64,000 nucleotides of DNA, from the NCBI RefSeq assembly GCF_036365525.1, contig NW_027140825.1, positions 992,001-1,056,000 on the forward strand, given 5' to 3'. Source of the stretch: Heterodontus francisci. Its lineage: Eukaryota. Shown here in pieces: positions 24,091-63,019 of this stretch. The notes beneath the pieces were generated by a model, which did not search any database, had not been told where the DNA came from, and saw only the letters and a list, made by a program, of their open reading frames with translations. The stretch's first letter is position 1. Each line of letters starts with the position of its first letter. The translations under genes and the position numbers were made by a program.

Positions 24091-24177
24091 CAAAGACTAA
24101 ATAAATACGACTTCAAACTGGAGACCTCCAGCCTGCGGGAGAATCACTCGGCCGTGTATTTCTGTGCCTGGAGAGAT
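24091..24177 (+). pseudogene. 3' relic of a family B V exon
   Basis: Encodes RLNKYDFKLETSSLRENHSAVYFCAWRD only; 5' part replaced by CR1. Confidence 0.9.
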
Positions 24178-24216
24178 CACAGTGACTCAGAGAGATGGAG
24201 CAGTTCAACAAAAACA
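24178..24216 (+). other. 23-bp RSS (orphan)
   Basis: CACAGTG + 23 nt + ACAAAAACA. Confidence 0.92.
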
Positions 24217-25329
24217 TCAAAGGCAGCAGGAAACACCTGTTTCAGATAAAATTGCTCGGTACCTTGACCTACCGTTCCCTGATGCAGAGTGATAGCGTTT
24301 ATTGCAATAAAAAGAGTTGAGTTATGATTGTAGTGACACACTAGATTTACAGGTACTGCCGAGGGTGCAGAGAACGATTAATAAGGATGTCACGAGATTT
24401 CAGAATGTAACTATCAGGAATCAATGACAATAATCTGGGTATTCATACACTGACCCTGTGTTGACCTTCTCCACAGGGACAGCAGAGGGGGATCCAGGAC
24501 CATAGACCGGACAATGGCTTTGAGAAGGATTTAGTGAGAAAACTAATAGAGCAGGAGATCATGCAGATCCAGCTTGATATACATCAACAGGACAAGGACA
24601 CCCACTCCTTTAGAGAGAGAAAGAGAGTGTATGTGTGTGAAAGAGAGAGCGAGATCCAGTGAGAGAGAGGAAAAACGACAGGTAGAGTTAAAGAGACTGA
24701 GACAGAGAGGGAGACAGAGATAGAGGCAAAGACAGTGAGACAGCAAGAGACACATAATGAGAGAGAGAGAGAGACACTGAGAGAGAGATGGAGAGAAAGA
24801 GAGACTGAGCTAAAGAGCCTGCGACCGATAGGAAGATAGATCAAGAGAGAGACAGAGACAGGGAAATAAACTGAAGAGATAACAAGAGTAAGAGAGAGGG
24901 AGAGTCAGAGAGAAGGAGGGAATGGGAGACATAACCTTAGATACATGAGGAGACAGAGAGTCAGAGAGAAAAAGTGAGCGAAGATAGACTGAGATAGAAT
25001 GGGAGAGAGAGCCTGAGAAAGGAAGAGAGTGGGAGACATAAACCTAGACACATGAGGGGAGAGAGAGAGAGAGACAGAGAGAGAGTGCAAGAGAGCGGAA
25101 GGTAAACTGAGATAGAGATAGATAGAGAGAGAGAGAGAGAAGCAGAATGGCAGCCAATTCAATTCTGATTTGTTGAACTGGGTGAATGGGCGTCTCCAAC
25201 ATTGTATCACATCCTAATGCTCTTCATGTTCCTCCCAATGATTTGAAAAGAGTGGATTTGGACCGTTACAAGACTCGAAGCTCCTGATCTCACTCCTGTG
25301 TCTATTAAGAGAACAGGTTATAGTGAAAG

Positions 25330-25782
25330 ATGTATCAGTTACTGGGTCTGATAATCCTGTTTCATTGTAAGTGAGTGTGAAATACAAAAACTATCGTTAA
25401 TAACTTTCCTCTCTTCTCCCTGTCTCCCTTTCATTCCCAGAAGTTTCCTGTTTACTGATCTGCTCTTCTCTCCATCTCCCTCCCAGATGTCAACTCACAG
25501 ACTATCCACCAGACTCCCGCCGCTGTCTCCAGATTGCGTGGAGAGGCAGTGGAACTGAGGTGCACAGCGGAGGGCACCAGTACTGCTGGAATGTACTGGT
25601 ACAGACAATACCCGGGGAAGGAGCCGCTGTTGATGTTTTACTCCAGTACTGCTAACTGTGTGGATCCAGAGGGGATGGTGGGCGGTTTCACCGCCGAGAG
25701 GCCGACTGACTCCCAGTTCAACCTGGAGTCCTCCAGCCTGCGGGAGAATCACTCGGCCGTGTATTTCTGTGCCTGGAGTCCT
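25330..25782 (+). CDS. TRBV: TRBV30-like family B V segment, open frame but defective heptamer
   Basis: Leader 25330-25366 (MYQLLGLIILFH), intron 25367-25486, V exon 25487-25782 ending YFCAWSP. Confidence 0.85.
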
Positions 25783-25821
25783 AACAGTGACTCAGAGAGA
25801 TGGAGCAGTTCAACAAAAACC
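25783..25821 (+). other. Mutated 23-RSS
   Basis: AACAGTG (C>A at invariant first base) + 23 nt + ACAAAAACC. Confidence 0.9.
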
Positions 25822-27074
25822 CCAAAGGCAACAGGAAACACCTGTTTCAGATAAACCCAGACGGTGCTGCGTCCTGCTGGGTATTTTTGTCATTGGGAAC
25901 ATGTTTTTCACAAGAAGACAGGGCGGATTTAAATAGAACGAGATTAGATTTAGAGACAGTGGAAAATTGCGAGATAGAATTTCGAGGAATGAAACCGATA
26001 CTGAGAAGTTATAACGATCAAAGAAGTCTGAACCAGAAAAGAGAAGACTGAAGGATAAACCTTTAGTGTTCTTAGAGAGATTCTGAAAGGGTTTAATGNN
26101 NNNNNNNNNNNNNNNNNNNNNNNNNNNNNNNNNNNNNNNNNNNNNNNNNNNNNNNNNNNNNNNNNNNNNNNNNNNNNNNNNNNNNNNNNNNNNNNNNNNN
26201 NNNNNNNNNNNNNNNNNNNNNNNNNNNNNNNNNNNNNNNNNAGGTAGGCNNNNNNNNNNNNNNNNNNNNNNNNNNNNNNNNNNNNNNNNNNNNNNNNNNN
26301 NNNNNNNNNNNNNNNNNNNNNNNNNNNNNNNNNNNNNNNNNNNNNNNNNNNNNNNNNNNNNNNNNNNNNNNNNNNNNNNNNNNNNNNNNNNNNNNNNNNN
26401 NNNNNNNNNNNNNNNNNNNNNNNNNNNNNNNNNNNNNNNNNNNNNNNNNNNNNNNNNNNNNNNNNNNNNNNNNNNNNNNNNNNNNNNNNNNNNNNNNNNN
26501 NNNNNNNNNNNNNNNNNNNNNNNNNNNNNNNNNNNNNNNNNNNNNNNNNNNNNNNNNNNNNNNNNNNNNNNNNNNNNNNNNNNNNNNNNNNNNNNNNNNN
26601 NNNNNNNNNNNNNNNNNNNNNNNNNNNNNNNNNNNNNNNNNNNNNNNNNNNNNNNNNNNNNNNNNNNNNNNNNNNNNNNNNNNNNNNNNNNNNNNNNNNN
26701 NNNNNNNNNNNNNNNNNNNNNNNNNNNNNNNNNNNNNNNNNNNNNNNNNNNNNNNNNNNNNNNNNNNNNNNNNNNNNNNNNNNNNNNNNNNNNNNNNNNN
26801 NNNNNNNNNNNNNNNNNNNNNNNNNNNNNNNNNNNNNNNNNNNNNNNNNNNNNNNNNNNNNNGATAGATAGGTAAATAGATATACAGACACTGTTGTGTT
26901 TTATTCACTGACAGTGTTGTCTTTCTCCACAGTGACAGCAGAGGGCGGTGTAGGACCGTGATAAGTATCAGATTATTGATGATGTTTCAATCGGGACTTT
27001 GAAACTTGTCCATGAACATCTCCTGATAATTAAATAACTACATCCTGGTTACAGACTGGTGAACTGAACACAAG

Positions 27075-27640
27075 GTACCGCAGATGCTGGATGGTTTCGG
27101 TTCTGGGTGCTCTGTCACGATATTGGTGCTCGTTGCATTTCTGGGTTATAAATAAATAAGGATGGAAATGTTAATCAGATCAGACAGCCTCTGTGGAGGG
27201 AGAAAAAAACATTAGCATATCAGGTCGTAGATCTTTCAACAGAACTGGAAGGATTTAGAGATCTATTAAGTTTTAAGCAGCACAAAGTCAGAGAGAGGGG
27301 GAATGGGAGAAATGCAAAAGAGATTTAATAACAAAACTGAGGCTGGTGCAAGACAAAATGGATGTTAATGGGTCAAGTAAAGAACAAACGATGGGTCCAG
27401 AAGAGGCAGAACTGGCAGAAACACAATCATTACCAACAAGCCTCTGTCCAAATAAACCGGAGCAGTGGTTATGATCAGAAATGGTTAAATTGGCTGTTGA
27501 GTCCAGAAAGCTGTAAAGTGTCCGATTGAAAGATGAGGGGCTGTTCTTCGAGTTTCTGTTGAGCTTCACTGGAGCAGAGGAGGAGGTCGAGGACAGAGAG
27601 GTCAGGGTGGGAGTGGGAATGGGAATTAAAAGTGTCCACT
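27075..27640 (-). mobile_element. Penelope-like retroelement 3' fragment (paralog ~39105-39620)
   Basis: Minus ORF FNSHSHSHPDLSVL.LL.CS.EAQ.KLEEQ.LIF..TLQ.SGLN matches the GIY-YIG C-terminus of vertebrate Penelope elements; pLTR-like sequence follows. Confidence 0.75.
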
Positions 27641-28367
27641 AACCAGAATCTCAGGGTCACTCTTGCTGCCTGAATGCAGGATGTTCCACAATGCTGTCAC
27701 CTTGGTGCTGTATTTGGTCTCTGCAGCTGGTCCCACTCCCCCTGCCCTTTCTAAATAACACTGCACATTTTCCCTTCAGATAATTATCCAAATTTCCTTT
27801 TGAAAGCCACGATTGAACCTGCCTCCCCCGCACTCTCAGGTAGTGCATTCCAGATCCTCACCACTCACTGTGTCAAAACGTTTCCTCAGTTCACCTTTGG
27901 ATCTTTTGCCAATTACCTTCAGTAAGTGCCCTCTGGTTATCAATACATCCGCCCATGAAACACAGAGACAGAGAGGGTGAATCAGGGAGACATAGAGAGG
28001 AAAAACTCAACGTAAAAGAACGGGACAGAGGGAGACAGAGAGAGAAATACACACACACACACACACACAGAAAAAGAGAGAAAGAGATTGAAAGAGTGGG
28101 AGACATAAAGCTCGATACATGCAGAGAGAGAGAGTGAGGAACAATGAGTAAGAAAGAGAGAGGAAGGCGGATTGAGATCGATAGAGAGAGACATTGACAA
28201 ACTATTCCACTCTGACTTGTTTACCTGGGCGTCACCATCTCTGCATCACTTCCTAATGCTCTTCCTGTTCCTCCCAATGATTTGTAAAGAGTGGGTTGGT
28301 TATTGACAACACTGATCACTCCTGCTCTCTCCCCTTTGCTGATTCAGAGGGCAGCTTAAAGTAAAAG

Positions 28368-28842
28368 ATGTATCTGTTACTGGCTCTGATCACCCTGTTT
28401 CACCGTAAGGCGTTTTATTAAAACAATAATTCTACTTAACATTTCTTTCGTTTTATTTTTCTTTGATTTTCTCTCTCTCCCTTTTCTCCCCACTGGACTG
28501 AATGTCCCTGTTTATTGATCTCTTCCTCTCCCTGTATCTTTCCCAGATGTGAACTCACAGACGATGCACCAGACTCCCGCCGCTGTCTCCAAATTGTCTG
28601 GGGAGCAGGTGAAGCTGAAATGCACCGTGCAGGGCAGCAGTAACCCTGACATGTTCTGGTACAGACAACAGCCAGGGAAGGAGCCTCAGCTGATGTTTTA
28701 CTCCCGAAGTGGACAAAGCGTGAACTCAGAGGGGACGGTGGAGGGTTTCACCGCCGAGAGACGGAGTAACTCCGAGTTCCACCTGGAGTCCTCCAGCCTG
28801 CGGGAGAATCACTCGGCCGTGTATTTCTGTGCCTGGAGTCTT
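28368..28842 (+). CDS. TRBV: TRBV30-like family B V segment (apparently functional)
   Basis: Leader 28368-28404 (MYLLLALITLFH), intron 28405-28546, V exon 28547-28842 ending YFCAWSL. Confidence 0.9.
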
Positions 28843-28881
28843 CACAGTGACCCAGAGGGATGGAGCAGTTCAACAAAAACC
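28843..28881 (+). other. 23-bp RSS
   Basis: CACAGTG + 23 nt + ACAAAAACC. Confidence 0.95.
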
Positions 28882-29822
28882 CCAAAGGCAGCAGGAAACA
28901 CATGTTTCAGATAAAACCAGGCGGTGCTGCGTCTTGTTGGGTGATTTCATCATTGGGAACATGTTCTTCACAAGAAGTCAGCGCGGATTTAAAGAGAAAG
29001 TGAGAGGTTAGATTTCGAAGCACCGAGGAATTGCGAATTAGACTTTACAGGAACACAGAGTTTAAAGCGAACATGATAGTTTGAATATCGGGGTATCTTT
29101 GCTCCAGAAAAGAGAAGAATGAAGGGTAAACCTTCAGCGGTCTTAGAGAGATTGTTAAAGATTTTAATATGTGAAGTGAAGATCAGAAACAACAGCGAGA
29201 GAGACAGAGATTGATAGAGAGATCGAGAGAGATACAGAGAGAGATGANNNNNNNNNNNNNNNNNNNNNNNNNNNNNNNNNNNNNNNNNNNNNNNNNNNNN
29301 NNNNNNNNNNNNNNNNNNNNNNNNNNNNNNNNNNNNNNNNNNNNNNNNNNNNNNNNNNNNNNNNNNNNNNNNNNNNNNNNNNNNNNNNNNNNNNNNNNNN
29401 NNNNNNNNNNNNNNNNNNNNNNNNNNNNNNNNNNNNNNNNNNGAGAGGGAAATAAATAGAGATGGATAGATAGATAGAGAGAGACAGAGAGAGATTGATA
29501 GATAGAGAGATAGATAGAGAGAGGGAGAAAGAGAGACACGGATAGAGAGAGGGAGAGAGACAGAGACAGTGAGAGAGAGATAAAGAGAAGTAGAGAGAGA
29601 GATAGAGAGAGAGGGAAAGATAGAGAGAGATGGATGGATTGATGAATGGATATTGAAGGTGTGGTTTTATGTCACTGTGTTTTCTTTCTCCAAAGGGACA
29701 GTAGAGTGCGCTGTTGGACCATGATAAACATCAGAGTCTGAAACACACTTTAACAGTGACCTGGGAACACAAGGAGTTCATTCATCACCTCGGAAACATT
29801 CCGACCTTCACTGAGATCATGA

Positions 29823-29936
29823 AATAAAGACAAGAAATCCTGGAACCACATTGCGGGTCTGGCAGCATCTGTGGAAAGAGAAGCTGAGTTAACGTTTCGG
29901 GTCAGTGACCCTTCTTTCGGGTCAGTAATCCTTTAT
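29823..29936 (-). mobile_element. Short Penelope pLTR-like insertion with 16-bp target-site duplication
   Basis: TTCACTGAGATCATGA at 29807-29822 and 29937-29952; insertion absent at paralogous sites ~34610, ~45265, ~53610. Confidence 0.7.
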
Positions 29937-29959
29937 TTCACTGAGATCATGACTGATCG

Positions 29960-30320
29960 ATAACTTCCCATCGCTCTCTCTCTCCAACCCTCTCTCTCCC
30001 TCTCTCCATCCCTCTCTTTCTCCATCCCTCTCTCTCCCTCTCTCTCTATCCCTCTCGCTCCCACTCTCCATCCTCTCTCTTCCTGTCTCCATCCCTCTCT
30101 CTCCCTCTCTCTCTCCATCCTTCTCTCATCCTCTCTCCATCTCTCTCCCTCCATCTCTCTCCATCCCTCTCTCTCCTACACTCTCCATCCCTCTCTCTGC
30201 TCCTCTCCATCCCTCTCTCTTCCTATCTCCATTCCTCTCTCTCCCTCTCTCGCCATCCATCTCTGCCTCTCTCGCCATCATGCTCTCTCCCTCTCTCTCC
30301 ATCCCACTCTCTCACTCTCG
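29960..30320. repeat. CT-rich (CTCTCCATCC-like) simple repeat
   Basis: Direct inspection. Confidence 0.9.
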
Positions 30321-31099
30321 CTACCAAGCTGGTGTAAAATGAGAGAATGCCAATTAACATCCCTGTCTTTTACAGGGCAGTGACTGTCTCTCTATCTCGC
30401 TCGTTATTTTTCTACCTACATGACTTTCCCTCGATCTCTCTATATCTCTACCTCTCTCTATATCTATCTGTCAACCTGACTGACTCTCTATCTATCTATC
30501 TATCTCTCTACCTGGTTATCTAGCTCTCTGTCTCTGTATGTATCAAACTCTATCTTTCGGTGATTACAGTTTGAATGAACTAATTAAACATACTGCAGTA
30601 ATGTAATGAATGACCGTCTTTTCATAGATTTTCTATATATTGACCAGTAGAAGATGTGGTTTGTCATCAATTACGTATCAAAATCCTCTCTGATCTCCAA
30701 TATCTGTATCACATCCACCATTAACCTTCGCTGCTCGAAGGAGAGAAACCCCCAGCTTCTCCAGTCTCCCCACAGTAACTGAAGTCCCTCATCCCTGGTA
30801 ACAGATGGTTAATCTCTTTCTAACCTTCACTACACAGAGGCGAACAACTCCCCAATTCACAGGAACTAACTCAGCTCAGAACCATTAACCATCTGAGCGC
30901 TGTTTCACACTGTTCAGATACCCTCTCCAGATACCTTCATCTCTGGGACACCTGCCTCCTGACAGCGAGTTCATAAGCTGCTGAAAACTGTTTACCCACT
31001 TTCATCTCAGACTCCAGTCACATTTGATGTGTTTTTCAAAGAAATTAGCAGTTCAGACCAGTGAACAATTTAACCCTTTAACTCCCATTCACCACGCTG

Positions 31100-31460
31100 G
31101 TTCGGCAGCAGAGCAGTTATGTTACTGGACTCGAAATCCAGAGGCATGGACTAATGATCTCCAGACTTGAGTTCAATTCCCACTGGGGCAGAAATGCAAT
31201 TTAAATTCAATTAATTAAATAAATAAAAATCTATCAGAGACACTATGAGTAATCATGAACATGGAGTGTCGTAAAAACCCAACGTCTTCATTGATTACCT
31301 TCAGGGAAGGAAATCTGCCATTCTTACCCGGTCTGGCCTATATCTGATTGCAGACCCACAGCAATGTAGTTGACTACTAACTGCCCTCTGATATGGCCTA
31401 GCAGGTATTCCCGAAGATGGTTCACTACCACCTTCTCAGAGGCAATAAGGGATGGGCACA
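31100..31460 (+). mobile_element. tRNA-headed SINE (MetaSINE-like central domain); paralog 45700-46060, minus-strand copies ~32855-33230, ~51610-51970, ~22330-22560
   Basis: gtcgtaaaaaccca..ccttcagggaaggaaatctgcc..ttacccggtctggcc core; family name is from memory. Confidence 0.65.
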
Positions 31461-31746
31461 CTCTCTGGGTATGGAGTGTTGTTTCCCTGAATTCTACTCT
31501 ATCAAATCCCTTTCTGAAATGTGAACACCTCTATTCACTCTCCCCCTATCCTCCTGTGTTGTATCATTCTACAACATTGCTAACCAATGTAATGGGGTGG
31601 AGCAGAGTGTCGCAGTAAGTGACTGCCAATCACAATGACAACCGGATGCTGGGTATTTAATTGGATACAATATAGAAACCGCCTGCAGGTATGTTGTTGA
31701 AAACTCCACACGTTCACGCATCGAGTTAGTATCGAATGAAGAAATC

Positions 31747-32581
31747 ATGTTGCATAAAGTTCTCTGTCTAATCTTGATGGCTGCACTCTTCCCACGTAAG
31801 TCAAAGTCAGAAACTGTGTCGAATAATGTATTGTAAAGTCAGCGGTGATTCTGTTCCATAACACTGCTGTGTCAGAGTCTCACTCCAGAATACTTGAGCT
31901 CAAAGTCAAAACTAACACCCCAGGTGTCAGGGCTGTGGGAGTGCTGGACTGTCACAGAGGCAGTACTGAAGGTGTGCTGCACTGTCGCAGAGGCAGTACT
32001 GAGGGAGTGCTGCACTGTCGCAGAGGCAGTACTGAGGGAGTGCAGCACTGTCACAGAGGCAGTACTGAGGGAGTGCTGCACTGTTGCAGAGGCAGTACTG
32101 AGGGAGTGCCGCACTGTCGCAGAGGCAGTACTGAGGGAGTAACTACATTGGTTGCAAAGCCCTTTCTGAGGTCCTGAGGTCCTGAACGGCGATATATTAA
32201 TGTAATCCCTCTCTTTCTTGCAATGCAGCTCCTGCTCCAATCCATTATTGACTGAAATAATAATCTAATCGATGTTCCATTCCACAGGAATACTCTCCTC
32301 CTATGTGGAACAGTCGCCCTCTATCCTATCGATTGCTGCAGGGGAGTCGACAACACTCAGATGCACGCTGACCAATACTGCCTATTCCGATATGTACTGG
32401 TACAGACAACAACCAGACAGGGCACTGGAAGCTCTGTTCTATTCTGCTACAGAAGGGTCTGTTACCAATTACACGTCCGAGTCATTTAAGGCAGTCAGAT
32501 CCAGCAATACACTGTTTCCTTTGGCACTGAGAGACGCCGCTCCATCTCACACCGCTGTCTATTTCTGCGCTTGTAGTGTCA
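31747..32581 (+). CDS. TRBV: TCR beta V segment, CACS family copy 1 (apparently functional)
   Basis: Leader 31747-31795 (MLHKVLCLILMAALFP), intron 31796-32287, V exon 32288-32581 YVEQSP..C..MYWYRQ..YFCACSV. Confidence 0.88.
31935..32140 (+). repeat. Intronic 33-bp minisatellite (~6 copies; paralog 46535-46740)
   Basis: Unit GAGGGAGTGCTGCACTGTCGCAGAGGCAGTACT. Confidence 0.95.
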
Positions 32582-32620
32582 CACAGTGTTTGAGAAAGCG
32601 GATCCTCAGCTGCAAAAACC
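32582..32620 (+). other. 23-bp RSS
   Basis: CACAGTG + 23 nt + GCAAAAACC. Confidence 0.95.
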
Positions 32621-32639
32621 TGCAGCGGATGAACGGGAG

Positions 32640-32673
32640 TTCAGTGCTCATCATCCACCGGCAGGGGGCAGCA
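32640..32673 (+). promoter_or_regulatory. Putative RSS-adjacent CTCF site
   Basis: CCGGCAGGGGGCAG core at 32658-32671, 37 nt after the nonamer. Confidence 0.6.
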
Positions 32674-33613: not shown

Positions 33614-34055
33614 ATGTATCTGTTCCTGGCTCTGATAATCCTGGTTCAAGGATACAAAGATTATCCTTCAGAACCTTCCTGTCTTCTCCCTGTCTCCCTT
33701 CCATTCCCAGAAGTTCCCTGTTTACTGATCTCCTCCTCTCTCCATCTCTCTCCCAGATGTCAACTCACAGACTATCCACCAGACTCCCGCCGCAGTCTCC
33801 AGGTTTCCCGAGAAATGAGTGGAACTGAGGTGCACCGTGGAGGGGAGCAGCAGTAACCTCTCCATGTACTGGTACAGACAATACCCGGGGAAGGAGCCGC
33901 TGTTGATGTTTTACTCCAATACTGTTAACTATGTGGATCCAGAGGGGACAGTGGGTGGTTTCACCGCCGAGAGACCGACTGACTCTCAGTTCAATCTGGA
34001 GACCTCCAGCCTGCGGGAGAATCACTCGGCCGTGTATTTCTGAGCCTGGAGACTT
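33614..34055 (+). pseudogene. TRBV: Family B V pseudogene
   Basis: Leader splice donor deleted (vs 52409 paralog), TGA at 33816, second Cys TGT>TGA at 34041, RSS CACACTG/ATAAAAACC (34056-34094). Confidence 0.92.
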
Positions 34056-35755
34056 CACACTGACTGAGAGAATTGGAACAGTTCAATAAAAACCCCAAAG
34101 GCAGCAGGAAACACCTGTTTCAGATAAAACCAGGCGGTGCTGCGTCCTGTTGGGTGTTTTTATCATTGGGATCATGTTTTCTGCAAGAAGACAGGGTGGA
34201 TTTAAATAGAAGGTCGCAGGTTAGAAAGAAGAACAGGGAAATTGCGAAATATACTTAACATGAACACAGAGGTTAAAGTTATGAAGATTAATTTGAACAG
34301 TGGGGGATCTTTGCTCCAGAAAGGAGAAGACTGNNNNNNNNNNNNNNNNNNNNNNNNNNNNNNNNNNNNNNNNNNNNNNNNNNNNNNNNNNNNNNNNNNN
34401 NNNNNNNNNNNNNNNNNNNNNNNNNNNNNNNNNNNNNNNNNNNNNNNNNNNNNNNNNNNNNNNNNNNNNNNCACTGTGTTTCCTTTCTCCAAAGGGACAG
34501 CAGAGTGCACTGCAGGACCATGATAAACATCAGAGTCTGCAACACACTTTAACAGTGACCTGGGAACACAAGGAGACCATTCATCACCTCGGAAACACTC
34601 CGACCTTCAATGAGATCATGACTGATCAATAACTTCCTGTCGCTCCCTCTCTCCATCCCTCTTTCTCCATCCCTCTCTCCATCCCTCTCTCCATCCCCCT
34701 CTCTCCCCCTCTCTCCATCCCTCTTTCCCCATCCCTACCCTCCCTCTCTCTCCCTCCCTCGCTCTCCCACTAGCAACAAAGCCGGTGTAAAACGAGAGAA
34801 TGCCAATTAACATCCCTGTCTTTTACACGGGCAGTGACTGCCTCTCTATCTAGCTCGCTAAATCTCTACCTATCTTACTTTCCCTCTATCTCTGTATTTC
34901 TCTACCTCTCTATCTATCTATCTGTGTACCTGACTGTCTATCGATCTATCTCTCTACCTGGTTATCTATCGCTCTTTCTCGCTATCTATCTAACTCTATC
35001 TTTAGCTGATTACAGTTTGTATGAACTGATTAAACATACTGTAATAATGTAATGAATGACCATCTTTTCATCGATTTTGTATATATTGACCATATATGAT
35101 GTGGTTTGTCATCAATTATCTATCAAAATCCTCCATGATCTTCAATGTCTGTATCACATCTACCATGAACCTTCTGTGCTGTAAGTAGAGTAACCCCCAC
35201 CTTCTCCAGTCTCTCCACAGTAACTGAAGTCCCTCATCCCTGGCACCAGTCTGGTTAATATCCCTCTCACCTTCACTGCACAGAGGGGAACAACACCCAA
35301 TGCACAGGGACTCAATACATCCGGTGATGAAACACAGATAAAGAGAGGGTGAATCAGGGAGACATAGAGAGGAAAAACTCAGCGTAAATGAACGGGTCAG
35401 AAGGAGACAGAGAGAGAACGACACACACTCACACACACACACAAATACAGAGTGAGAAAGAGATTGAAAGAGTTGGAGACATAAAGCTCGATACATGCAG
35501 AGAGAGAGAGAGAGAGAGAGATAGAAACAAAGAGTAAGAAAGAGAGAGGAAGGCGGATTGAGATAGATAGAGAGAGAGACGTTGTCAACCGACTCCACTC
35601 TAACTTGTTGACCTGGGCGTCAACATCTCTGCATCACTTCCTAATGCTCTCCCTGTTCCTCCCAATGATTTTCAAACAGTGGGTTGGTTATTGACAACAC
35701 TCATCACTCCTGCTCTCTTCTCTTTGCTGATTCAGAGGGCAGCTTAAAGTAAAAG

Positions 35756-36228
35756 ATGTATCTGTTACTGACTCTGATCACCCTGTTTCACCGTAAGGGA
35801 TTATATTGAAACAATAATTCTACTTAACATTTCTTTCGTTGTATTTATTTTTGATTCTCTCTCTCTCTTCTCTCTCCCCAAGGCACTGAATTTCCCTGTT
35901 TACTGATCTCTCTGTCTCTTTCCCAGATGTGAACTCACAGACTATCCACCAGACTCCCACCGCTGTCTCTAAATTGCCTGGTGAGAGAGTGGAACTGAAG
36001 TGCACTGTGCAGCGCAGCAGCACCAGTATCCTCTACATGTACTGGTACAGACAATAGCCGGGGAAGGAGCCGCAGATGATGTTTTACTCTATCACTGCAC
36101 AAAACGTGAAATCAGAGGGGATGGTGGACGGTTTCACCGCCGAGAGACCGAGTAACTTCGACTTCAACCTGGAGTCCTCCAGCCTGCGGGAGGATCACTC
36201 GGCCGTGTATTTCTGTGCCTGGAGTCTT
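35756..36228 (+). pseudogene. TRBV: Family B V pseudogene with intact RSS
   Basis: Leader 35756-35792, V exon from 35927, TAG at 36055-36057; RSS CACAGTG-23-ACAAAAACC at 36229-36267. Confidence 0.9.
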
Positions 36229-36342
36229 CACAGTGACTTAGAGAGATGGAGCAGTTCAACAAAAACCCCAAAGGCAGCAGGAAACACCTGTGGACTTTAA
36301 AACTGCTCGGAGCCGAGAACTTCTTTCGTTTAGCAGAGCGAA

Positions 36343-38091: not shown

Positions 38092-38547
38092 ATGTATCTG
38101 TTACTGGGTCTGATAATCCTGTTTCATTGTAAGTGAGTGTGAAATACAAAGATTATCATTAATAACTTTCCTCTCCTCTCCCTGTCTTCCTTTCATTCCC
38201 AGAAGTTCCCTGTTTACTGATCTCCTCCTCTGTCCATCTCTGTCCCAGATGTGAACTCACAGACTATCCACCAGACTCCTGCCGCTGTCTCCAGATTTCC
38301 CGGGAAAGGAGTGGAACTGATGTGCACTGTCAAGGGGAGCAGCAGTAGCATCTCCATGTACTGGTACAGACAACACCCGGGGAAGGAGCCGCTGTTGATG
38401 TTTTACTCCAGTACTGTTAACTATGTGGATCCAGAGGGGACGGTGGAAGGTTTTACCGCCGAGAAACTGAATAAGTACGAGTTCAAACTGGAGTCCTCCA
38501 GCCTGCGTGAGAATCACTCGGCCGTGTATTTCTGTGCCTGGAGTCTT
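38092..38547 (+). CDS. TRBV: TRBV30-like family B V segment, open frame but 17-bp RSS spacer and truncated promoter
   Basis: Leader 38092-38128, intron 38129-38248, V exon 38249-38547. Confidence 0.85.
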
Positions 38548-38580
38548 CACAGTGAGAGATGGAGCAGTTCAACAAAAACC
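38548..38580 (+). other. RSS with 17-bp spacer
   Basis: CACAGTG AGAGATGGAGCAGTTCA ACAAAAACC; 6 nt shorter than paralogs. Confidence 0.92.
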
Positions 38581-40313
38581 CCAAAGGCAGCAGGAAACAC
38601 CTGTTTCAGATAAAACCAGGCTGTGCTGCGTCCTGTTAGTTGTTTTTGGCATTGGAAAAGTGTTTTTCACAAGAAGACAGGGCGGATTTAAACAGAAAGT
38701 GAGAGGTTAGAAATAGAAGCACAGGGGAATTGTGAAATAGACTTCACAGGAATGATATCGGAACAAAGATAGTTTGAACATCTTTGCTCCAGAAAGGAGA
38801 AGACTGAAGGGTGAACATTCATAGTTCTTAGAAAGATTATAAAAGGGTTTAATGTGTGAAGTGAAGATCAGATAGGTAGGGAGATAGGTCGATAGATAGC
38901 TGGTAGGCAGACAGACAAAGTTGTGTTTTTTTCACTGACAATGTTGTCTTTATCCACAGCGACAGCAGAGGGCGGTGTAGGACCGTGATAAGTATCAGAT
39001 TATTGATGATGTTTCAATAGGGACTTTGAAACTTGTCTATGAACCTCTCCTGATAATTATAGAACTACATCCCGGTTACAGTCTGGTGAACTGAACACAA
39101 GGTACCGCAGATGCTGGATGGTTTAGGTTCTGGGCGCTCTGTCACTGTATTGGAGCTCATTGTGTTTCTGGGTTATAAATAAATAAGGATGGAAATACTA
39201 ATCAGGTCAGACAGCCTCTGTGGAGAGAGACAAAACATTAACATATCAGGTCGTAGACCTTTCAACAGAACTGGAAGGATTTAGTGATCTATCAGCTTTT
39301 AAGCAGCAGAAAGCCAGGGAGAGGGAGAATGGGAGGAATGCAGGAGAGACTTAATAACAAAACTGAGGCTGGTGCAAGACAAAGGAGATGTTAATGGGTC
39401 AAGTAAAGAACAAGAGATGGGTCTAGAGGAGGTGAAAGTAGCAGAAACACAATTATTACCAACAAACCTCTGCCCATATAAACCGGAGCAGTTGTTACGA
39501 TCAGAAATTGTTTAACTCACTGTTGAGCCCAGAAAGCTGCAAAGTTTCTGTTGAGCTTCACTGGAGCAGAGAAGGAGGTCGAGGACAGAGAGGTGGGAGT
39601 GGGAATGAGAATTAAAAGTATCCGCTAACTAGAATCTCAGGGTCACAGTTGCAGCCTGAATGCAGGATGTTCCACAATGCTGTTAGCCTGTTGCTGTACT
39701 TGGTCTCTGCAGCTAGTCCCACTCCCCCTGCCCTTTCTAAATAACACTGCATATTTTCCTTACACATAATTATTCAAATTTCCTTTTGAAAGCGACGATT
39801 GAAACTGCCTCCCCCGCACTCTCAGGTAGTGCATTCCAGATCCTAACCATTCACTGTGTCAAAACGTTTCCTCAGTTCACCTTTGGATCTTCTGCCAATT
39901 ACCATCAATAAGTGACCTCTGGTTCTCAATCAATCCGGTGATGAAACATAGAGATAGAGAGGGTGAATCAGGGAGACGTCGTGAGGAAAAGCTCAGTGGA
40001 AATGAACGGGACAGAGGGAGACAGAGACAGAAAGATGCACACACACACAAACACACACAGATACAGAGAGAGAAAGAGAGTGAAAGAGTTGTAGACATAA
40101 AGCTGGATGTATGCAGATAGAGAGAGAGAGAGAGAGACATTGTCAACCTACTCCACTCTGACATGTTTACCTGGGCGTCACCATCTGTGCATCACTTCCT
40201 AATGCTCTTCCTGTTCCTCCCAATGATTTGTAAAGAGTGGGTTGGTTATTAACAACACTCATCACTCCTGCTCTCTCCCCTTTGCTGATTCAGAGGGCAG
40301 CTTAAAGTAAATG

Positions 40314-40800
40314 ATGTATCTGTTACTGACTCTGATCACCCTGTTTCACCGTAAGGGATTTTATTGAAACAATAATTCTACTTAACATTTCTTTTGGATA
40401 TGTTTTTATTTCTCCCATTCTCTCTTTCTTGCCCTCTTTCTCTCTCCCCACTGGACTGAAATTCCCTGTTTACTGATCTCCTCCTCTCCCTGTCTCTTTC
40501 CCAGATGTGAACTCACAGACTATCCACCAGACTCCCGCCGCTGTCTCCAAATTTTCTGAGGAGCAGGTGAAGCTGAAATGCACCGTGCAGGGCAGCAGTA
40601 ACCCTGACATGTTCTGGTACAGACAATACCCGGGGAAGGAGCCACAGTTTATGTTTTACTCCACAGGTACTGATCACATAAATCCGGAGAAGGCGGTGGA
40701 TGTTTTTGCCGCCGAGAGACCGACTAGCTCCCAGTTCAATCTGGAGCCCTCCAGTCTGCGGGAATATCACACGGCCATGTATTTCTGTGCCTGGAGAGAT
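40314..40800 (+). CDS. TRBV: TRBV30-like family B V segment (apparently functional)
   Basis: Leader 40314-40350 (extra in-frame ATG at 40311), intron 40351-40504, V exon 40505-40800 ending YFCAWRD; RSS 40801-40839 CACAGTG-23-TCAAAAACC. Confidence 0.9.
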
Positions 40801-41319
40801 CACAGTGACTCAGAGAGATGGAGCAGTTCATCAAAAACCCCAAAGGCAGCAGGAAACACCTGTGGAGGGTAAAACTGCCCGAAGCCTCGAATTTCTTTCG
40901 TTTTGCAGAGCGAAAGTGTTTATGATAACAAGAAGAGATGGGTTAGAGTGGTAGTGAGAGATTAGATATACAGGTAGTAGAGAATGTGCTGAGAACAATT
41001 AACAAGGATGACACCAGATCTGAGGTTGTAACTATCAGGAAAGATCAACTAGAAAAAGACTTGAGTTTTTCTGCATTGACACTGAGTTTTCCTCCTCTGT
41101 AGGGTTAACAGAGGGTGCTCTCGGACCATGAATACACAATGGCCTGGCAAACATTTAATAGGAAAACAGAAAGAGGCAGAGGTCATACAGCCCTCGAGCT
41201 TCATACACATTGACAGGAGAAGCACATTCATCACCTTAGAGAGGGATATACACACACTCAACGAGAGAGACAAATCGAGGAAGACCGAGTGTGTGAGAGA
41301 GGGATAGAACAAGATTGAG

Positions 41320-42582: not shown

Positions 42583-43067
42583 ATGTATCTGTTACTGACT
42601 CTGATCACCCTGTTTCACCGTAAGGAATTTTATTGAAACAATAATTCTACTTAACATTTCTTTAGGATATGGTTTTATTTATTTCGTTCTCTCCTTCTCT
42701 CTCTTTCTCTCTCCCCACTGGACTGAATTTCCCTGTTTACTGATCTCCTCCTCTCCCTGTCTCCTTCCCAGATGTGAACTCACAGACTATCCACCAGACT
42801 CCCGCCGCTGTCTCCAAATTTTCTGAGGAGCAGGTGAAGCTGAAATGCACCGTGGATGGCACCAGGAACCCTTACATGTACTGGTACAGACAATACCCGG
42901 GGAAGGAGCCACAGCTGATGTTTTACTCCCTAACTGCACAAAGGGTGAACTCAGAGGGGACGGTGGAGGGTTTCACCGCCGAGAGACCGACTGACTCCGA
43001 GTTCAACCTGCAGTCCTCCAGCCTGCGGGAGAATCACTCGGCCGTGTATTTCTGTGCCTGGAGAGAT
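42583..43067 (+). CDS. TRBV: TRBV30-like family B V segment (apparently functional)
   Basis: Leader 42583-42619, intron 42620-42771, V exon 42772-43067 SQTIHQTP..CTVDGTRNPYMYWYRQ..YFCAWRD; RSS 43068-43106 CACAGTG-23-ACAAAAATC. Confidence 0.9.
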
Positions 43068-44004
43068 CACAGTGACTCAGAGAGATGGAGCAGTTCAACA
43101 AAAATCCCAAAGGCAGCAGGAAACACCTGTGGAGGGTAAAACCGTTTGGTGCCTCTACCTGTTGTTTCCTTATTCAGAGTGACAGTGTTTGTTACAATAA
43201 AAAGAGTTGAGTTATGATTGTAGTGACACATTAGATTTACAGGTACTGCCGAGGGTGCAATGAACGATTAATGAGGATGTCACGAGATCTCAGAATGTAA
43301 CTATCAGGAATCAATGACAATAATCTGGGTTTTTATGCACTGACCCTGTGTTTACCTTCTCCACAGGGACAGCAGAGGGGGATCCAGGACCATGGACCAG
43401 ACAATGGCTTTGAGAAGGATTTAGTGAGAAAACTAAGAGAGCAGGAGATCATGTCGATCCAGCTTAATATACGTCAACAGGACAAGGACACCCACTACTT
43501 TAGAGAGAGAAAGAGAGTGTATGTGTGTGAAAGAGAGAGCGAGGTCCAGTGAGAGAGAGGAAAAACGACAGACAGAGTGAAAGTGACTGAGACAGAGAGG
43601 GAGACGGAAATCGAGGAAAAGACAGTGAGACAGCAAGAGACACATAATGAGAGAGAGAGAGACACTGAGAGAGAGACGGAGAGAAAGAGAGACTGAGATA
43701 AAGAGCCTGCGATGGATAGGGAGACAGAGCTCGAGAGAGACAGAGACAGGGAAATAACTAAAGAGATAACAAGAGTATGAGAGAGGGAGAGTCAGAGAGA
43801 AGGAGAGAATTGGAGACATAACCTTAGATACATGAGGAGAGAGGGAGAGTCAGAGAGAGAAAATGAGTGAAGACAGACTGAGATAGAGAGGGAGAGAGAG
43901 TCTGAGAAAGGAAGAGAGTGGGAGACATAACCCGAGACACATGAGGTGAGAGAGAGAGAGAGACAGCGAGAGAGTGCAAGAGAGCGGAAGGTAAACTGAG
44001 ATAG

Positions 44005-44236: not shown

Positions 44237-44692
44237 ATGTATCAGTTACTGTGTCTGATAATCCTGTTTCATTGTAAGTGAGCATGAAATGCAAAGATTA
44301 TCGTTAATAACCTTCCTCTCCTCTCCCTGTCTCCCTTTCATTCCCAGATGTTCCCTGTTTACTGATCACCTCCTCTCTCCATCTCTCTCCCAGATGTGAA
44401 CTCACAGACTATCCTCCAGACTCCCGCTGCTGTCTCCAGATTTCCCGGGAAAGGAGTGGAACTGAGGTGCACAGTGGAGGGGAGCAGCAGTAACATCTAC
44501 ATGTACTGGTACAGACAAGAGCCAGGGAAGGAGCCGCTGTTGATGTTTTACTCCAATACTGCTAACTATGTGGATCCAGAGGGGACGGTGGACGGTTTTA
44601 CCGCCAAGAAACTGAATAAGTACGAGTTCAAACTGGAGTCCTCCAACCTGCGGGAGAATCACTCAGCCATGTATTTCTGTGCCTGGAGTCTT
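44237..44692 (+). CDS. TRBV: TRBV30-like family B V segment (apparently functional)
   Basis: Leader 44237-44273, intron 44274-44393, V exon 44394-44692; RSS 44693-44731 consensus 23-RSS. Confidence 0.9.
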
Positions 44693-45073
44693 CACAGTGA
44701 CTCAGAGAGATGGAGCAGTTCAACAAAAACCCCAAAGGCAGCAGGAAACACCTGTTTCAGATAAAACCAGTCGGTGCTGCTTCCTGTTGGTTGTTTTTTT
44801 TATCATTGGGAACATGTTTCTCACAAGAAGACAGTGCGGATTTAAATAGAAAGTGACAGGTTAGATATAGAAGCACAGGGGAATTGTGGAATAGACTTTG
44901 CAGAAATGATATCAGAACACAGAGGTTAAAGTTATCAAGATAGTTTGAACATCGGGGGATCTTTGCTCCAGAAAGGAGAAACTGAAGGGTAAGCATTCAA
45001 CGGTCTTAGAGAGATTATTACAGATTTTAATATGTGAAATGAAGATCAGATAAACACAGATAGATAGATAGAG

Positions 45074-45104
<31 letters not shown>

Positions 45105-46347: not shown

Positions 46348-47180
46348 ATGTTGCATGAAGTTCTCTGTTTAATCTTGATGGCTGCATTCTTTCCACGTAA
46401 GTGAAAGTCAGAAACTGTGTAGAATAATGTATTGTAATGTCAGCGGTGATTCTGTCTGGAACACTCCTGTGTCTGAGTCTCACTCCACAACACTAGAGCT
46501 CAAAGTCAAAAGTAACACCCCAGGTGTCAGGGCTGAGGGAGTGCTGCACTGTCGCAGAGGCAGGACTGAGGGAGTGCTGCACTATCGCAGAGGCAGTACT
46601 GAGGGAGTGCTGCACTATCGCAGAGGCAGTATTGAGGGAGTGCTGCACTGTCGCAGAGGCAGTACTGAGGGAGTGCTGCACTATCGCAGAGGCAGTACTG
46701 AGGGAGTGCTGCACTGTCGCAGAGGCAGTACTGAGGGAGTAACTACATTGGTTGCAAAGCCTTTCTGATGTCTTGAGGTCCTGAACGGCGCTATATTAAT
46801 GTCAGCCCTTTCTTTCTTGCAATGCAGCTCCTGCTCCAATCCATTATTGACTGAAATAATAATTTAATCGATGTTCCATCCCACAGGAATACTCGCCTCC
46901 TATGTGGAACAGTCGCCCTTTATCCTATCGATTGCAGCAGGAGATTCAACAACACTCAGATGCACGCTGACCAATACTGGCTGTACATTAATGTACTGGT
47001 ACAGACAACAACCAGACAGGGCACTGGAATCTCTGTTCTATTCTGCGACAGAAGGGTCTGTTACAAATTACACGTCTGAGTCATTTAATGCAGTCAGATC
47101 CAGCAATGCACTGTTTACTTTGGCACTGAGAAACGCTGCTCCATCTCACACCGCTGTCTATTTCTGTGCTTGCAGTATCG
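46348..47180 (+). CDS. TRBV: TCR beta V segment, CACS family copy 2 (apparently functional; extra CDR1 Cys)
   Basis: Leader 46348-46396, intron 46397-46886, V exon 46887-47180 ..CTLTNTGCTLMYWYRQ..YFCACSI; RSS 47181-47219 CACAGTG-23-GCAAGAACC. Confidence 0.88.
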
Positions 47181-47239
47181 CACAGTGTTTGAGAAAGCGG
47201 ATTCGCAGCTGCAAGAACCTGCAGCGGATGAACGGGAGT

Positions 47240-52371: not shown

Positions 52372-52823
52372 ATGTATCTGTTCCTGGCTCTGATAATCCT
52401 GGTTCAACGTGAGTGCCAAATACAAGGATTATCCTTCAGAACCTTTCTCTCCTCTCCCTGTTTTTCTTTCATTCCCAGAAGTTCCCTGTTTACTGATCTC
52501 CTCCTCTCTCCATCTCTCTCCCAGATGTGAACTCAAAGAATATCCACCAGACTCCCGCCGCTGTCTCCAGATTTCGCGGGAAAGGAATGGAACTGAGGTG
52601 CACTGTGGAGGGGAGCAGCAGTACCCTCTACATGTACTGGTACAGACAAGAGCCGGGGAAGGAGCCGCTGCTGATGTTTTACTCCAATACTGCTAACTAT
52701 GTGGATCCAGAGGGGACGGTGGACGGTTTTACTGCCGAGAGACCGACTGACTCCCAGTTCAACCTGGAGTCCTCCAGCCTGTAGGAAAATCACTCGGCCG
52801 TGTATTTCTGTGCCTGGAGTCTT
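52372..52823 (+). pseudogene. TRBV: Family B V pseudogene with intact RSS
   Basis: Leader 52372-52408, V exon from 52525, TAG at 52782-52784 in FR3; RSS 52824-52862 consensus. Confidence 0.9.
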
Positions 52824-52990
52824 CACAGTGACTCAGAGAGATGGAGCAGTTCAACAAAAACCCCAAAGGCAGCAGGAAACACCTGTTTCAGATAAAACCA
52901 GGTGGTGCTGCGTCTTGTTGGGTGTTGTTTTTTTTATTATTGGGAACATGTTTTTCACAAGAAGACAGGGCGAAATTTAATAGAAAGTCA

Positions 52991-54881: not shown

Positions 54882-55166
54882 ATGTGAACTCACAGACTAC
54901 CCGCCGCTGTCTCCAAATTTCCTGGTGAGCAGGTGAAGCTGAAATGCACCGTGGATGGTAGCAGTGACCCTTACAAATACTGGTACAGACAATACCCGGG
55001 GAAGGAGCTGCAGCTGATGTTTTACTCCCTAACTGCACAAGGGGTGAACTCAAAGGGGACGGTGGAGGCTTTCACCACCGAAAGACCGACTGACTCCACG
55101 TTCGACCTGGAGTCCTCCAGCCGACGGGAGAATCATTCGGCCGTATATTCCTGTGCCTGGAGTAAT
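54882..55166 (+). pseudogene. TRBV: Family B V pseudogene lacking leader exon, frameshifted
   Basis: Leader deleted at ~54742; 11-nt deletion after CAGACTA (~54899); RSS 55167-55205 consensus. Confidence 0.9.
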
Positions 55167-55719
55167 CACAGTGACTCAGAGAGATGGAGCAATTCAACAA
55201 AAACCCTAAAGGCAGCAGGAAACACCTGTGGAGGGTAAAACCGTTCGGTGCCTCGACCTGCTGTTCCCTTTTGCAGAGTGAAAGTGTTTATTACAATAAA
55301 AAGAGCTGCGTTAATATTGTAGTGAGATTTTAGATTTACAGGTACTGGCGAGGGTGCAATGAACGATGAATAAGGATGTCACGAGATCTCAGAATGTAAC
55401 TATCCGGAATCAATGACAATAATCTGGATTTTTTATGCACTGACCCTGTGTTTACCTTCTGCACAGGGACAGCAGAGGGGGTTCCAGGACCATGGAATGG
55501 ACAATGGCTTTGAAAAGGATTTAGTGAGAAAACGGAAAGAGCGGGAGGTCTGCAGATCCAGCTTGATATACATGAACAGGACAAGGACACCCACTTTGTT
55601 AGAGAAGGGAAGAGAGTGTATGTGTGTGACAGAGAGAGATCTAGTGAGAGAAAGCAAAAACGACAGACAGAGTTAAAGAGACTGAGACAGAGAGGGAGAC
55701 AGAGATAGAGACAATAAAG

Positions 55720-56158
55720 GGATATTACAGGGATTGATCTGGAGAATGAAGGATTATTATAGGGATTGATCTGGAGAATGAAGGATTATTATAGGGATTG
55801 ATCTGGAGAATGAGGGATTATTATAGGGATTGATCTGGAGAATGAAGGATTATTATAGGGATTGATCTGGAGAATGAGGGATTATTATTGGGATTGATCT
55901 GGAGAATGAAGGATTATTATAGGGATTGATCTGGAGAATGAGGGATTATTATTGGGATTGATCTGGAGAATTAAGGATTATTATAGGGATTGCTCTGGAG
56001 AATGAGGGATTATTATCGGGATTGATCTGGAGAATGAAGGATTATTATAGGGATTGATCTGGAGAATGAGGGATTATTATAGGGATTGATCTGGAGAATT
56101 AAGGATTATTATAGGGATTGATCTAGAGAATGAAGGATTATTATAGGGATTGATCTGG
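55720..56158. repeat. 32-bp minisatellite (~13-14 copies)
   Basis: Unit GGATTATTATAGGGATTGATCTGGAGAATGA(A/G). Confidence 0.95.
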
Positions 56159-56162
56159 GAGA

Positions 56163-59378: not shown

Positions 59379-59610
59379 GCCAGAATCAAGTGGGTGAAGG
59401 GAATAAAGGGGCCAAGGGGGAGTTGACTCCGCACCACGGTTTAAAATCCTGTTCCCATCTCTCTGCATCTCAGCCCATCAGCACCTCCTTCTATTCCTTA
59501 CTCCCTCATGTCCTGATCTAATCTCCCCCTTAAATGCATCTCCACTATTGGCCTTAACTTACTCGCTGTGGTCGTGAAATTGAGCCCCCTGGTTCTAGAC
59601 TTCTCAACCA

Positions 59611-61350: not shown

Positions 61351-62039
61351 TGCTATATGTGAAGTCTCTACCTTCCGAAGCTCCTGCCAGGGGATATCAT
61401 TTCTCCCTAACTGCTCTATCGAACGGCTGTACCTCCAGGGTTAAAACATCCCATTAGCTTGCTCTGATCCAGGAAAACTGTCCCAGCTTCTCCAGTCTCT
61501 CCACATAACAACCGTCTCTCAACCATGGCACCATTCTGGTAAATGTCTCTTCAACCGCCCTGGTCTAAGGATAACGATGGCATAGTTGCAATGTCACTGC
61601 GCTAATAAGCCAGAGGCCTAGGCTGATGCCCAGGTTACATGGGTTCAGGCACAGGCACACCCAGTGCAATTTAAACTTCCCAAGGACCCAGTAATGTGCA
61701 TAGCCCTGCTGTAGAATAGGTAAGGAGCCCAGTGCCACACAGGTGGCATTGCACCTATTTGCCTCAGGCCACTGTTGCTTACAACGTTTGCCAGGAGACA
61801 CACGGCATCGACATCTGGCTATTCGGAGATGAAGGTGTGGATAAACTGGAATCCAGATGTCTATAAATTGGAAATCTACACGTGGCTAATGTGGGAATGC
61901 CGATGAGGTTCGTTGGGGATCTGGATATGTACAATTGGAGATTTCTCATCAGTAAATTAGAAACTGAACAACATACATCCTTGTTGGGATTATTAACAAC
62001 ACTTAATCCAGTCACTCAACCATAACAAGGAACCACGTC

Positions 62040-62140
62040 CATTCTGATTGGTTGGGTGTTGGAAGGGGGCGTGTCCAACACTGCATCACTTCCTCATGCT
62101 CTTCATATTTTCCTCAATGATTTGTAAAGAGCAGGTTTGG
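62040..62140 (+). promoter_or_regulatory. Family B V promoter module: inverted CCAAT, GGGCGT, ETS-like CACTTCCT, CAATGATTTGTAAAGAG (recurs before most family B leaders)
   Basis: Conserved at ~25150, 28205, 33448, 35595, 40155, 42405, 44055, 52205, 62040. Confidence 0.6.
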
Positions 62141-62206
62141 ACCCTCACAAGGCTTACACTCCGGTTCTCGCTGCTTTGCTTATTTCTAAACAGCTTCAAG
62201 GGGAAG

Positions 62207-62660
62207 ATGTATCAGTCATTGGCTCTGATAATCCTTTTGCACTGTGAGTGAGTCTGAAATACCAACGTTTTCTCTAATAACCTTCCTATACTCATTCCCT
62301 CTTCCTTTCATTTCCTAGAAATCCCCTGTTTACTGACATCTTCCTCTTCCCCACTCTCTCCCAGGTGTGAACTCGCAGACTATCCTCCAGACTCCTGCCG
62401 CTGTCTCCAGAGTTGTGGGGGAGGAAGTGGAACTGAAGTGCACTTTGGAGGGGAGCAGTACCCTTAACATGTTCTGGTACAGACAATACCCGAGGAAGGA
62501 GCCTCAGGTTATGTTTTACTCCACGGGTACTAATCACAAAAATCCAGAGAAGGAGGTGGACGGTTTCACTGCCGAGAGACCAACTGGCACCCAGTTCAAC
62601 CTGGAGTCCTCCAGCCTGCGGGAGAATCACTCGGCCGTGTATTTCTGTGCCTGGAGTCTT
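62207..62660 (+). CDS. TRBV: TRBV30-like family B V segment (apparently functional)
   Basis: Leader 62207-62243 (MYQSLALIILLH), intron 62244-62364, V exon 62365-62660; RSS 62661-62699 consensus 23-RSS. Confidence 0.9.
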
Positions 62661-63019
62661 CACAGTGACTCAGAGAGATGGAGCAGTTCAACAAAAACCC
62701 CAAAGGCAGCAGGAAACACCTGTTGGACATACAATAGCGCGGTATTTCCACTTGAATTGATGCAGGGCTATCATATTTTTGACAATAAGAATAGACGGGT
62801 GAGAATAAAATTGAGAGCACAGGTGCAGAGGCGAAGAGTCTGGCCTCTTTCTGTGCTGATAAGCTTTCTATCTTTCTATGAAAGATTAAGAAGGGTGGCA
62901 CCACACTGAGAGGTTTTCACTATCAGGAGAGAATATCAGAAAAACGATTGGGGTTTTATCCACTAACACGGTGTCTTCTTTCACTCAGATGATCAAACAC
63001 ACAACTCTCTTTGTTAGGA

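Follow-up and report, generated by a model that had tools for sequence, protein, structure and literature searches.

The horn shark, Heterodontus francisci, carries an inverted array of T-cell receptor (TCR) beta variable (V) gene segments at its TCR beta (TRB) locus. The array was studied in a stretch of 64,000 nucleotides (C779:992001-1056000, on contig NW_027140825.1 of the 6.0-Gb assembly), which we call the window; segment coordinates without a contig name are window positions. The window belongs to a run of 50 V segments on the plus strand (882-1,055 kb), and this run faces, from the 3′ side, a minus-strand cassette of diversity (D), joining (J) and constant (C) elements in the order D-J-D-J-C. 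We are confident of the following explanation taken as a whole. The 50 segments form an inverted TRBV array 3′ of D-J-D-J-C, its family B likely belongs to the TRBV30 lineage, the genes of this family likely join by inversion, and the entire unit has likely been copied about 21 times.

Position and content of the V array

Beyond the end of the window, the minus-strand cassette consists of 17 V segments, D1, seven J, D2, ten J and a TRBC gene of four exons. Its landmarks are:

C779:1,106,476, minus strand, D1
C779:1,097,242, minus strand, D2
C779:1,081,370-1,078,212, minus strand, TRBC, four exons

Exon 1 of TRBC is 100% identical to a protein named TCR beta chain-like by its source. The V segments of the window are linked to TRBD with recombination signal sequences (RSS) of 12- and 23-bp spacer (12-RSS and 23-RSS), to TRBJ with 12-RSS and to TRBC, which is the linkage of TRBV genes. 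The array lies inverted, 3′ of this intact cassette. An inverted site 3′ of TRBC is also the position of mammalian TRBV30 (PMC2275272). The last V of the array (62207..62699) is followed, past the window end, by a further J segment, J2, about 7 kb away, and by the opposite-strand TRBC, whose exon 1 is at a distance of 26 kb.

The initial annotation had left the array as either upstream of D-J-C or inverted downstream, and had proposed mapping D-J-C on the scaffold. That map places the window array in the inverted, downstream position, 3′ of the minus-strand cassette. The choice itself was wrongly put, as family B also occurs upstream of D in other cassettes. Counted over two cassettes, B accounts for 46 of 83 inverted V segments and for 13 of 31 V segments upstream of D.

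Nineteen V segments were located in the window (three of family A, twelve of B, two of E, one of C and one of D), every one on the plus strand with a 23-bp-spacer signal. Exact heptamer-23-nonamer matches number seven, against none in 100 shuffled controls, and the window contains no 12-RSS at equal strictness. The twelve B segments announced by the initial annotation at 24091 to 62699 are all present on the plus strand, from 24094 to the end of the last 23-RSS at 62699. The motif it quoted for them holds with the variants TMHQ, TILQ and NIHQ at one site and CTA and CTL at another; the truncated first copy does not have it. A leader and an open exon with both cysteines and the tryptophan, the structure of a TRBV segment, are found in 7 of the 12, and the 3′ 23-RSS expected of such a segment is damaged in three. 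Five are apparently functional: the leader is present, the V exon is open and the 23-RSS is good (at 28843, 40801, 43068, 44693 and 62661). Two are open with a damaged signal (at 25783 the heptamer starts with A; at 38548 the spacer is 17 bp), and five are broken (RSS at 24178, a 3′ remnant, and at 34056, 36229, 52824 and 55167). We rejected a description of the interval as a pure B array; two family E genes lie inside it (RSS at 32582 and 47181). The segments are, all on the plus strand:

24094..24216, +, family B 3′ remnant with 23-RSS, pseudogene
25330..25821, +, family B, leader and open V exon, RSS heptamer damaged (first base A)
28368..28881, +, family B, leader, V and perfect 23-RSS, apparently functional
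31747..32620, +, family E, apparently functional, interleaved; best Protein Data Bank (PDB) matches are TRBV6-type chains
33765..34094, +, family B pseudogene, stop at the second Cys codon, RSS altered
35756..36267, +, family B pseudogene, in-frame stop
38092..38580, +, family B, V exon open, 17-bp RSS spacer
40311..40839, +, family B, apparently functional
42583..43106, +, family B, apparently functional; leader-to-V splicing for this gene type seen in public contigs
44237..44731, +, family B, apparently functional
46348..47219, +, family E, apparently functional, interleaved
52372..52862, +, family B pseudogene, in-frame stop
54888..55205, +, family B pseudogene, frameshift/deletion
62207..62699, +, family B, apparently functional, last V of the inverted array
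3116..12928, +, three family A genes, apparently functional, in a common clade with B
14605..20732, +, one family C and one family D gene, open, 23-RSS, different TRBV clade

A search for a leader of the family C gene in the last interval gave no candidate.

The RSS geometry requires inversion for the V segments of the window to reach D1 and D2, which are 43-111 kb away. From this geometry alone, we infer that the B genes likely join the D segments of the adjacent cassette by inversion. Evidence of expression comes from two sets of public contigs, X1 and X2, in both of which the leader exon is joined directly to the B V exon, which indicates splicing. In one X2 contig among those listed, the end of a V segment of family B or A is followed by a few added letters and then by a J of the main cassette, in frame. 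Several contigs of X1, X2 and a third set, X3, run through an unrearranged RSS at 42959-43110; these may be germline V transcripts or DNA in the library.

Family B and the TRBV30 lineage

A profile built from seven B sequences was searched against 177,635 PDB sequences with a cut-off of 1e-17 on a single V domain. The only chains with a single V domain under this cut-off were four TCR-beta chains of the Mel5/5xov group, at 78-80 bits, while other TCR V domains printed in the same search reached 55 bits. The same four chains recur in two further B searches and are near the top in another, and family A retrieved them as well. The MEL5 receptor is TRAV12/TRBV30 (PMC5887915). Family E, as a control, matched TRBV6-type chains. 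A V sequence of the mormyrid Paramormyrops, found by the B profile, has 5xov as its best PDB match (69.9 vs 39.9 bits). A count by eye along the 5xov chain gives an identity of about 44% (41/94 positions) between one B gene and TRBV30. Among the V genes in the PDB, TRBV30 is the closest mammalian V to B.

A tree of 47 rows groups 13 of them in one clade with a support of 97/99. The clade contains horn-shark B and A, four other elasmobranch V sequences, Acipenser and Paramormyrops, and it is separate from alpha-type V and from other TRBV. Among other elasmobranchs, Chiloscyllium, Mobula and Scyliorhinus have relatives of family B. The mullet V row was left out, and the tree contains no mammalian TRBV30 and no gamma or delta V. 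We regard B as a likely shark branch of the TRBV30 lineage. Because the clade has sturgeon and mormyrid members, the lineage of B and A is likely older than the split between sharks and bony vertebrates. The initial annotation had proposed a TRBV30-like identity for B, kinship of family A and this age. The identity was borne out by the best PDB match and the kinship by the common clade and the four shared PDB chains; the age now appears likely. An assignment of B to TRAV, TRDV or TRGV was rejected, as B falls outside the alpha-type outgroup of this tree, which holds no gamma or delta V, and is linked to TRB D-J-C.

The mammalian gene is described as a single copy beside EPHB6. Horn-shark B has hundreds of copies, and none of the 17 Eph ligand-binding matches is on a TRB contig (trypsinogen and MOXD2 were not searched). 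This counts against the description of the mammalian gene and not against kinship. Two Eph-receptor exons are found at C48:9,017,461 and 10,565,141, on a small chromosome-scale contig; if they are EPHB6/EPHA1, we would guess that C48 is a possible home of the unplaced TRB region. Protein searches with one B and one C V gene found no cDNA-derived shark TCR-beta chain, but the search was word-limited and is weak evidence.

A multiplied locus with a second J-constant unit

The assembly contains 21 copies of TRBC exon 1, with 98-100% identity, on six unplaced contigs and in both orientations. D patterns matched 14 D1 and 20 D2, with no match for the control pattern, and a same-strand D lies 14-25 kb upstream of each TRBC. 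The other genome-wide counts are 24 for C2 (the constant gene of the second unit described below), 24 for J2, 21 for V family H and 201 for exact matches to the B end with its RSS (control, 0). Among the matches listed (100 of 201 for B), all are on seven unplaced contigs of 0.29-1.99 Mb. Six of the seven carry TRBC and the seventh carries further V genes. TRBC exon 1 is open in 20/20 copies examined (of 21), and the four exons and their splice sites are intact in 13/13 examined. A C-domain search with mullet did not have the shark TRBC among its 150 scored genome matches, which were Ig-like (immunoglobulin-like) clusters; the D pattern did find the locus.

The 1.074 Mb of C779 that was mapped holds four cassettes and 190 V-like segments, 105 of them apparently functional. 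Family B contributes 96 segments, of which 38 are functional. Scaled by 36/201 strict matches, this gives about 540 B and about 1,060 V segments genome-wide. Each of the four mapped cassettes has 12-23 upstream V and 16-18 J. The organisation is therefore not that of a single translocon with one V array and one to few D-J-C units, since there are 21 TRBC, each with an upstream D. It is also not that of the shark Ig minicluster with one V and one J, as seen in 4/4 mapped cassettes. Two statements of the initial annotation are to be read in this light. Family B does dominate the array by segment count (12/19 in the window, 96/190 on C779), but less so among intact genes (38/105). Its large expansion is real, yet the growth in V number is largely a consequence of some 21-fold duplication of the entire locus.

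We compared 20 TRBC loci over about 3.3 kb each. The median divergence is 2.2%, with 197 common variable columns, and a limit of at most 10 substitutions sorts the loci into 14 groups. Only 2 of 190 pairs are under 0.1% divergence, one of them with zero substitutions, and six TRBC copies sit on one contig. The copies are paralogues, because 14 groups and the differences between cassettes exceed what two haplotypes supply. Two other contigs carry paralogues of the window in the form of mosaics (87-99.96% identity). A stretch of about 7 kb in the window (26863-34333) is 99.9% identical to contig C407 with flanks at 94-97%, a pattern that points to recent transfer of sequence between cassettes, by gene conversion or unequal exchange. 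One cassette with a single D and 16 J lacks D2 (C779:1,375,108-1,395,504); a similar spacing is seen on C761 (TRBC at 1,376,204). Multicluster organisation of horn-shark TCR-beta was reportedly described by Rast and Litman in 1994 from Southern blots.

On the strand of the V array, between the last V and TRBC, is a second unit. It consists of J2, with a 12-RSS, and a diverged constant gene of four exons, C2:

C779:1,061,478-1,070,350, plus strand, broken J2-C2 unit facing TRBC; transmembrane exon open, lysine kept; automatic model of one copy P0056

C2 is tail-to-tail with TRBC at 15.9-20.4 kb in 18 of 21 cases, and the remaining three TRBC are near contig ends. Exon 1 of C2 has frameshifts or stops at all 24 loci (two judged from alignment, one partial at the end of its stretch). 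No D was found upstream of J2 in the two cassettes scanned, and the same scan recovered both main D segments. The horn-shark unit thus differs from a TRE-like locus, which has its own D and an intact constant gene. Intact C2 orthologues with the transmembrane lysine occur as gene models in Scyliorhinus torazame (P0064, P0065) and Rhincodon typus (P0066); in the catshark model P0065 a B-type V precedes C2 on the same strand. Horn-shark TRBC and catshark C2 are 39% identical, the same distance as from TRBC to tetrapod TRBC. The constant-region tree did not resolve the deep nodes, and a shark-only clade of C1 and C2 was not rejected by the approximately unbiased (AU) test (p=0.149). One snake C was left out of both C trees, one short piece of Ig light chain was also omitted, a partial horn-shark C2 was left out of one, and no identified TREC was included. 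Independent TCR-beta duplications, with two TCR-beta in catshark, are said to have been reported by Pettinello in 2017.

The repeated unit comprises the upstream V, D-J-D-J-C, the broken opposite-facing J-C2 and the inverted V array. Segmental duplication and inversion likely produced its roughly 21 copies, which afterwards exchanged sequence with one another, and the B genes of the window likely join the D segments of the neighbouring cassette by inversion. As there are 21 or more constant genes, the horn shark likely builds its beta chains from many such units; that many cassettes are used in living T cells is a prediction from the sequence.

Other features of the TRB contigs are recorded here. 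The arrays end at a large tandem repeat with fragments of long interspersed nuclear elements (LINEs), common to both contigs on which it was seen (C779:492,001-582,000 and C1317:515,000-590,000). An orphan J2 at C779:583,855 has no C2 match adjoining it. V family I (C779:628,787; 661,777; 886,365 and others) has nine copies in 1.07 Mb, all broken, with near-intact RSS, carried along in the duplications. V family H (C779:1,199,442-1,199,726 and 20 more copies) occurs about once per TRB cassette and is mostly open, with a 23-RSS. It is antibody-like: it matches VH/VHH domains best in the PDB, and the genome matches that come next, at about 40%, are Ig-like clusters. Within TRB, family H may represent a V of Ig-like or gamma-like type. 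On C34, C8, C23 and C46, near-identical C1-set exons form large arrays (on C46 the repeat recurs about every 16 kb), which are likely Ig heavy- and light-chain clusters.

Alternative explanations, related loci and meaning

Several observations weigh against our explanation. The contigs are unplaced and a few copies are near-identical, so assembly redundancy may have inflated the cassette count somewhat. Families A and B together are not significantly enriched in the inverted arrays (54/83 vs 16/31, Fisher p=0.20). The rearranged contig does not show inversion or which cassette was used, since C779 has this J type twice, once in a minus- and once in a plus-strand cassette, and the V may be of B or A. 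Sets X1 and X2 come from one sample, and their status as RNA is the guess of a tool. The bootstrap of the V tree had not fully settled, and the likely orthology with TRBV30 rests on best matches and on a clade of sharks and ray-finned fishes in a tree without the mammalian gene. The true locus might have just one or two cassettes, the others being assembly artefacts from duplicated haplotypes or wrongly joined repeats. This would fit the facts that the contigs are unplaced, that one V is present in three copies of 100% identity and that one TRBC pair has no substitutions. We consider it highly improbable, as 14 distinct TRBC groups at 2-3% divergence are too many for two haplotypes and single contigs carry four to six divergent cassettes. 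Sets of J are moreover specific to their cassettes, a D has been lost, and C2 has three subtypes at 86-100%. The Southern blots reportedly described in 1994 also speak against an artefact. It is unlikely, though less so, that the V segments of the window are real but unused by the neighbouring cassette. They would then join by deletion to a same-strand cassette about 580 kb away, where there is a D1 at C779:1,636,058 and the expressed J type is also present, or be wasted on J2, a same-strand 12-RSS J only 7 kb from the last V, and its broken C2. The opposite-strand D segments are much closer to hand (43-111 kb), amniotes use inverted V genes (PMC11754216), and in the bamboo shark most V genes scored as functional occupy the inverted position (PMC10322711).

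The likeness of B to TRBV30 could also be a retained ancestral character or convergence, B being one of the TRBV families of fishes and not specially related to TRBV30. An identity of only about 44%, a CAW ending that is also present in an alpha-type snake V (P0007) and the low published support for the amniote inverted-V clade (PMC11754216) would agree with this. A score about 25 bits higher than for other TCR V domains, the independent agreement of family A and the mormyrid V, the different behaviour of family E and the same inverted location 3′ of C make it quite unlikely. A further possibility concerns history and can coexist with our explanation of the present locus. The inverted array may really be the V part of a V-(D)-J-C2 unit, an ancient second one facing the other way, which is dead here and intact in other sharks; mammalian TRBV30 would be its last relic. 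We hold this as a serious but minority possibility. A 12-RSS J and a complete four-exon C2 on the strand of the V array before TRBC, the recurrent tail-to-tail arrangement (18/21, the rest near contig ends), the intact C2 of Scyliorhinus torazame and Rhincodon typus with a same-strand B-type V in P0065, and a 39% identity that equals the distance of TRBC to tetrapod TRBC all speak for it. The C tree, with its unresolved depth and unrejected C1+C2 shark clade, speaks against it, as do the missing D before J2 (2/2 cassettes) and an exon 1 that is broken at each horn-shark C2 locus read; the catshark proteins are automatic gene models and not cDNAs. The independent TCR-beta duplications said to have been reported for catshark count against it as well. 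More speculative is a wider history in which the ancestral jawed-vertebrate TRB had two facing units. Sharks would keep the second one, made up of TRBV30-type V, J and a deeply diverged C2; catshark and whale shark have it intact, and in horn shark it is dead. The lone mammalian TRBV30, and perhaps squamate TCR-epsilon, would be relics of it. The horn shark would have multiplied the arrangement into more than 20 working cassettes, with the exclusion problem of an antibody-like multicluster system.

Human TRBV30, mouse Trbv31 and opossum TRBV28 (PMC2275272) resemble family B in sequence match, CAW ending, 23-RSS and inverted site 3′ of TRBC. The mammalian TRBV30 is a single gene, whereas horn-shark B has hundreds of copies on either side of D-J-C, some 60% of them damaged, and a broken J-C unit lies between its array and TRBC. 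The TRB locus of the bamboo shark, Chiloscyllium punctatum, has two opposite cassettes with 30/35 V inverted 3′ of C (PMC10322711, supplement 16). It shares with the horn shark more than one D-J-C cassette, opposite orientations and large inverted V arrays. To judge from leader length, B-type genes may be present there too: V genes with an intron start of 38, the leader length of B, fill 16 rows, all in inverted arrays. It differs in scale (two cassettes, 35 V and one D per cassette, compared with at least 21 cassettes and about 1,000 V), its tables give no second J-C unit, and the passages of PMC10322711 covered make no link to TRBV30. Repeated V-D-J-C or D-J-C units are also known from bichir, with five tandem TRB units (PMC10322711, which also gives inverted arrays for sterlet), from salmonids, with up to four TRB loci (PMC10464911), and from axolotl, with five D-J-C units and 6 TRBC (PMC12529555). 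Bichir, salmonids and axolotl have four to five times fewer units, and the parts available of these sources report no dead tail-to-tail second constant gene. The inverted TRBV of amniotes group together with weak support, and their sister group is squamate TREV (PMC11754216). Squamate TRE resembles J2-C2 in having a second TRBC-related constant gene with V allied to the inverted TRBV clade. It is a separate, squamate-specific V-D-J-C locus, whereas J2-C2 is inside TRB, has no D that we found and is broken (PMC11754216). Shark Ig miniclusters (PMC6795676) are likewise many repeated rearranging units with near-identical constant genes, but each has one V and one J, and a horn-shark TRB cassette, with its tens of V and 16-18 J, is itself a translocon.

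Reviews class the TCR genes of cartilaginous fishes as translocons (PMC6795676; PMC2275272). In the literature covered, which was full text outside subscription journals, we found no map of horn-shark TRB, no link of a shark V to TRBV30 and no tail-to-tail C2. The usual number of TRB constant genes is one to six, and the horn-shark assembly has at least 21. With their intact constant genes, these cassettes are the largest number for TRB that we found in print or in tables (the next is 5-6). This organisation, together with the relic second constant unit, is the surprising part for the specialist; inverted arrays are already tabulated in another shark. At least 21 cassettes would settle the claim of multicluster horn-shark TCR-beta said to date from 1994. 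The TRBV30-like identity and the location of the inverted array would push that arrangement back to sharks. C2 offers a testable origin for the inverted array and a candidate second beta-type chain in other sharks. About 40 allelic cassettes would make it testable how a T cell keeps to one beta chain.

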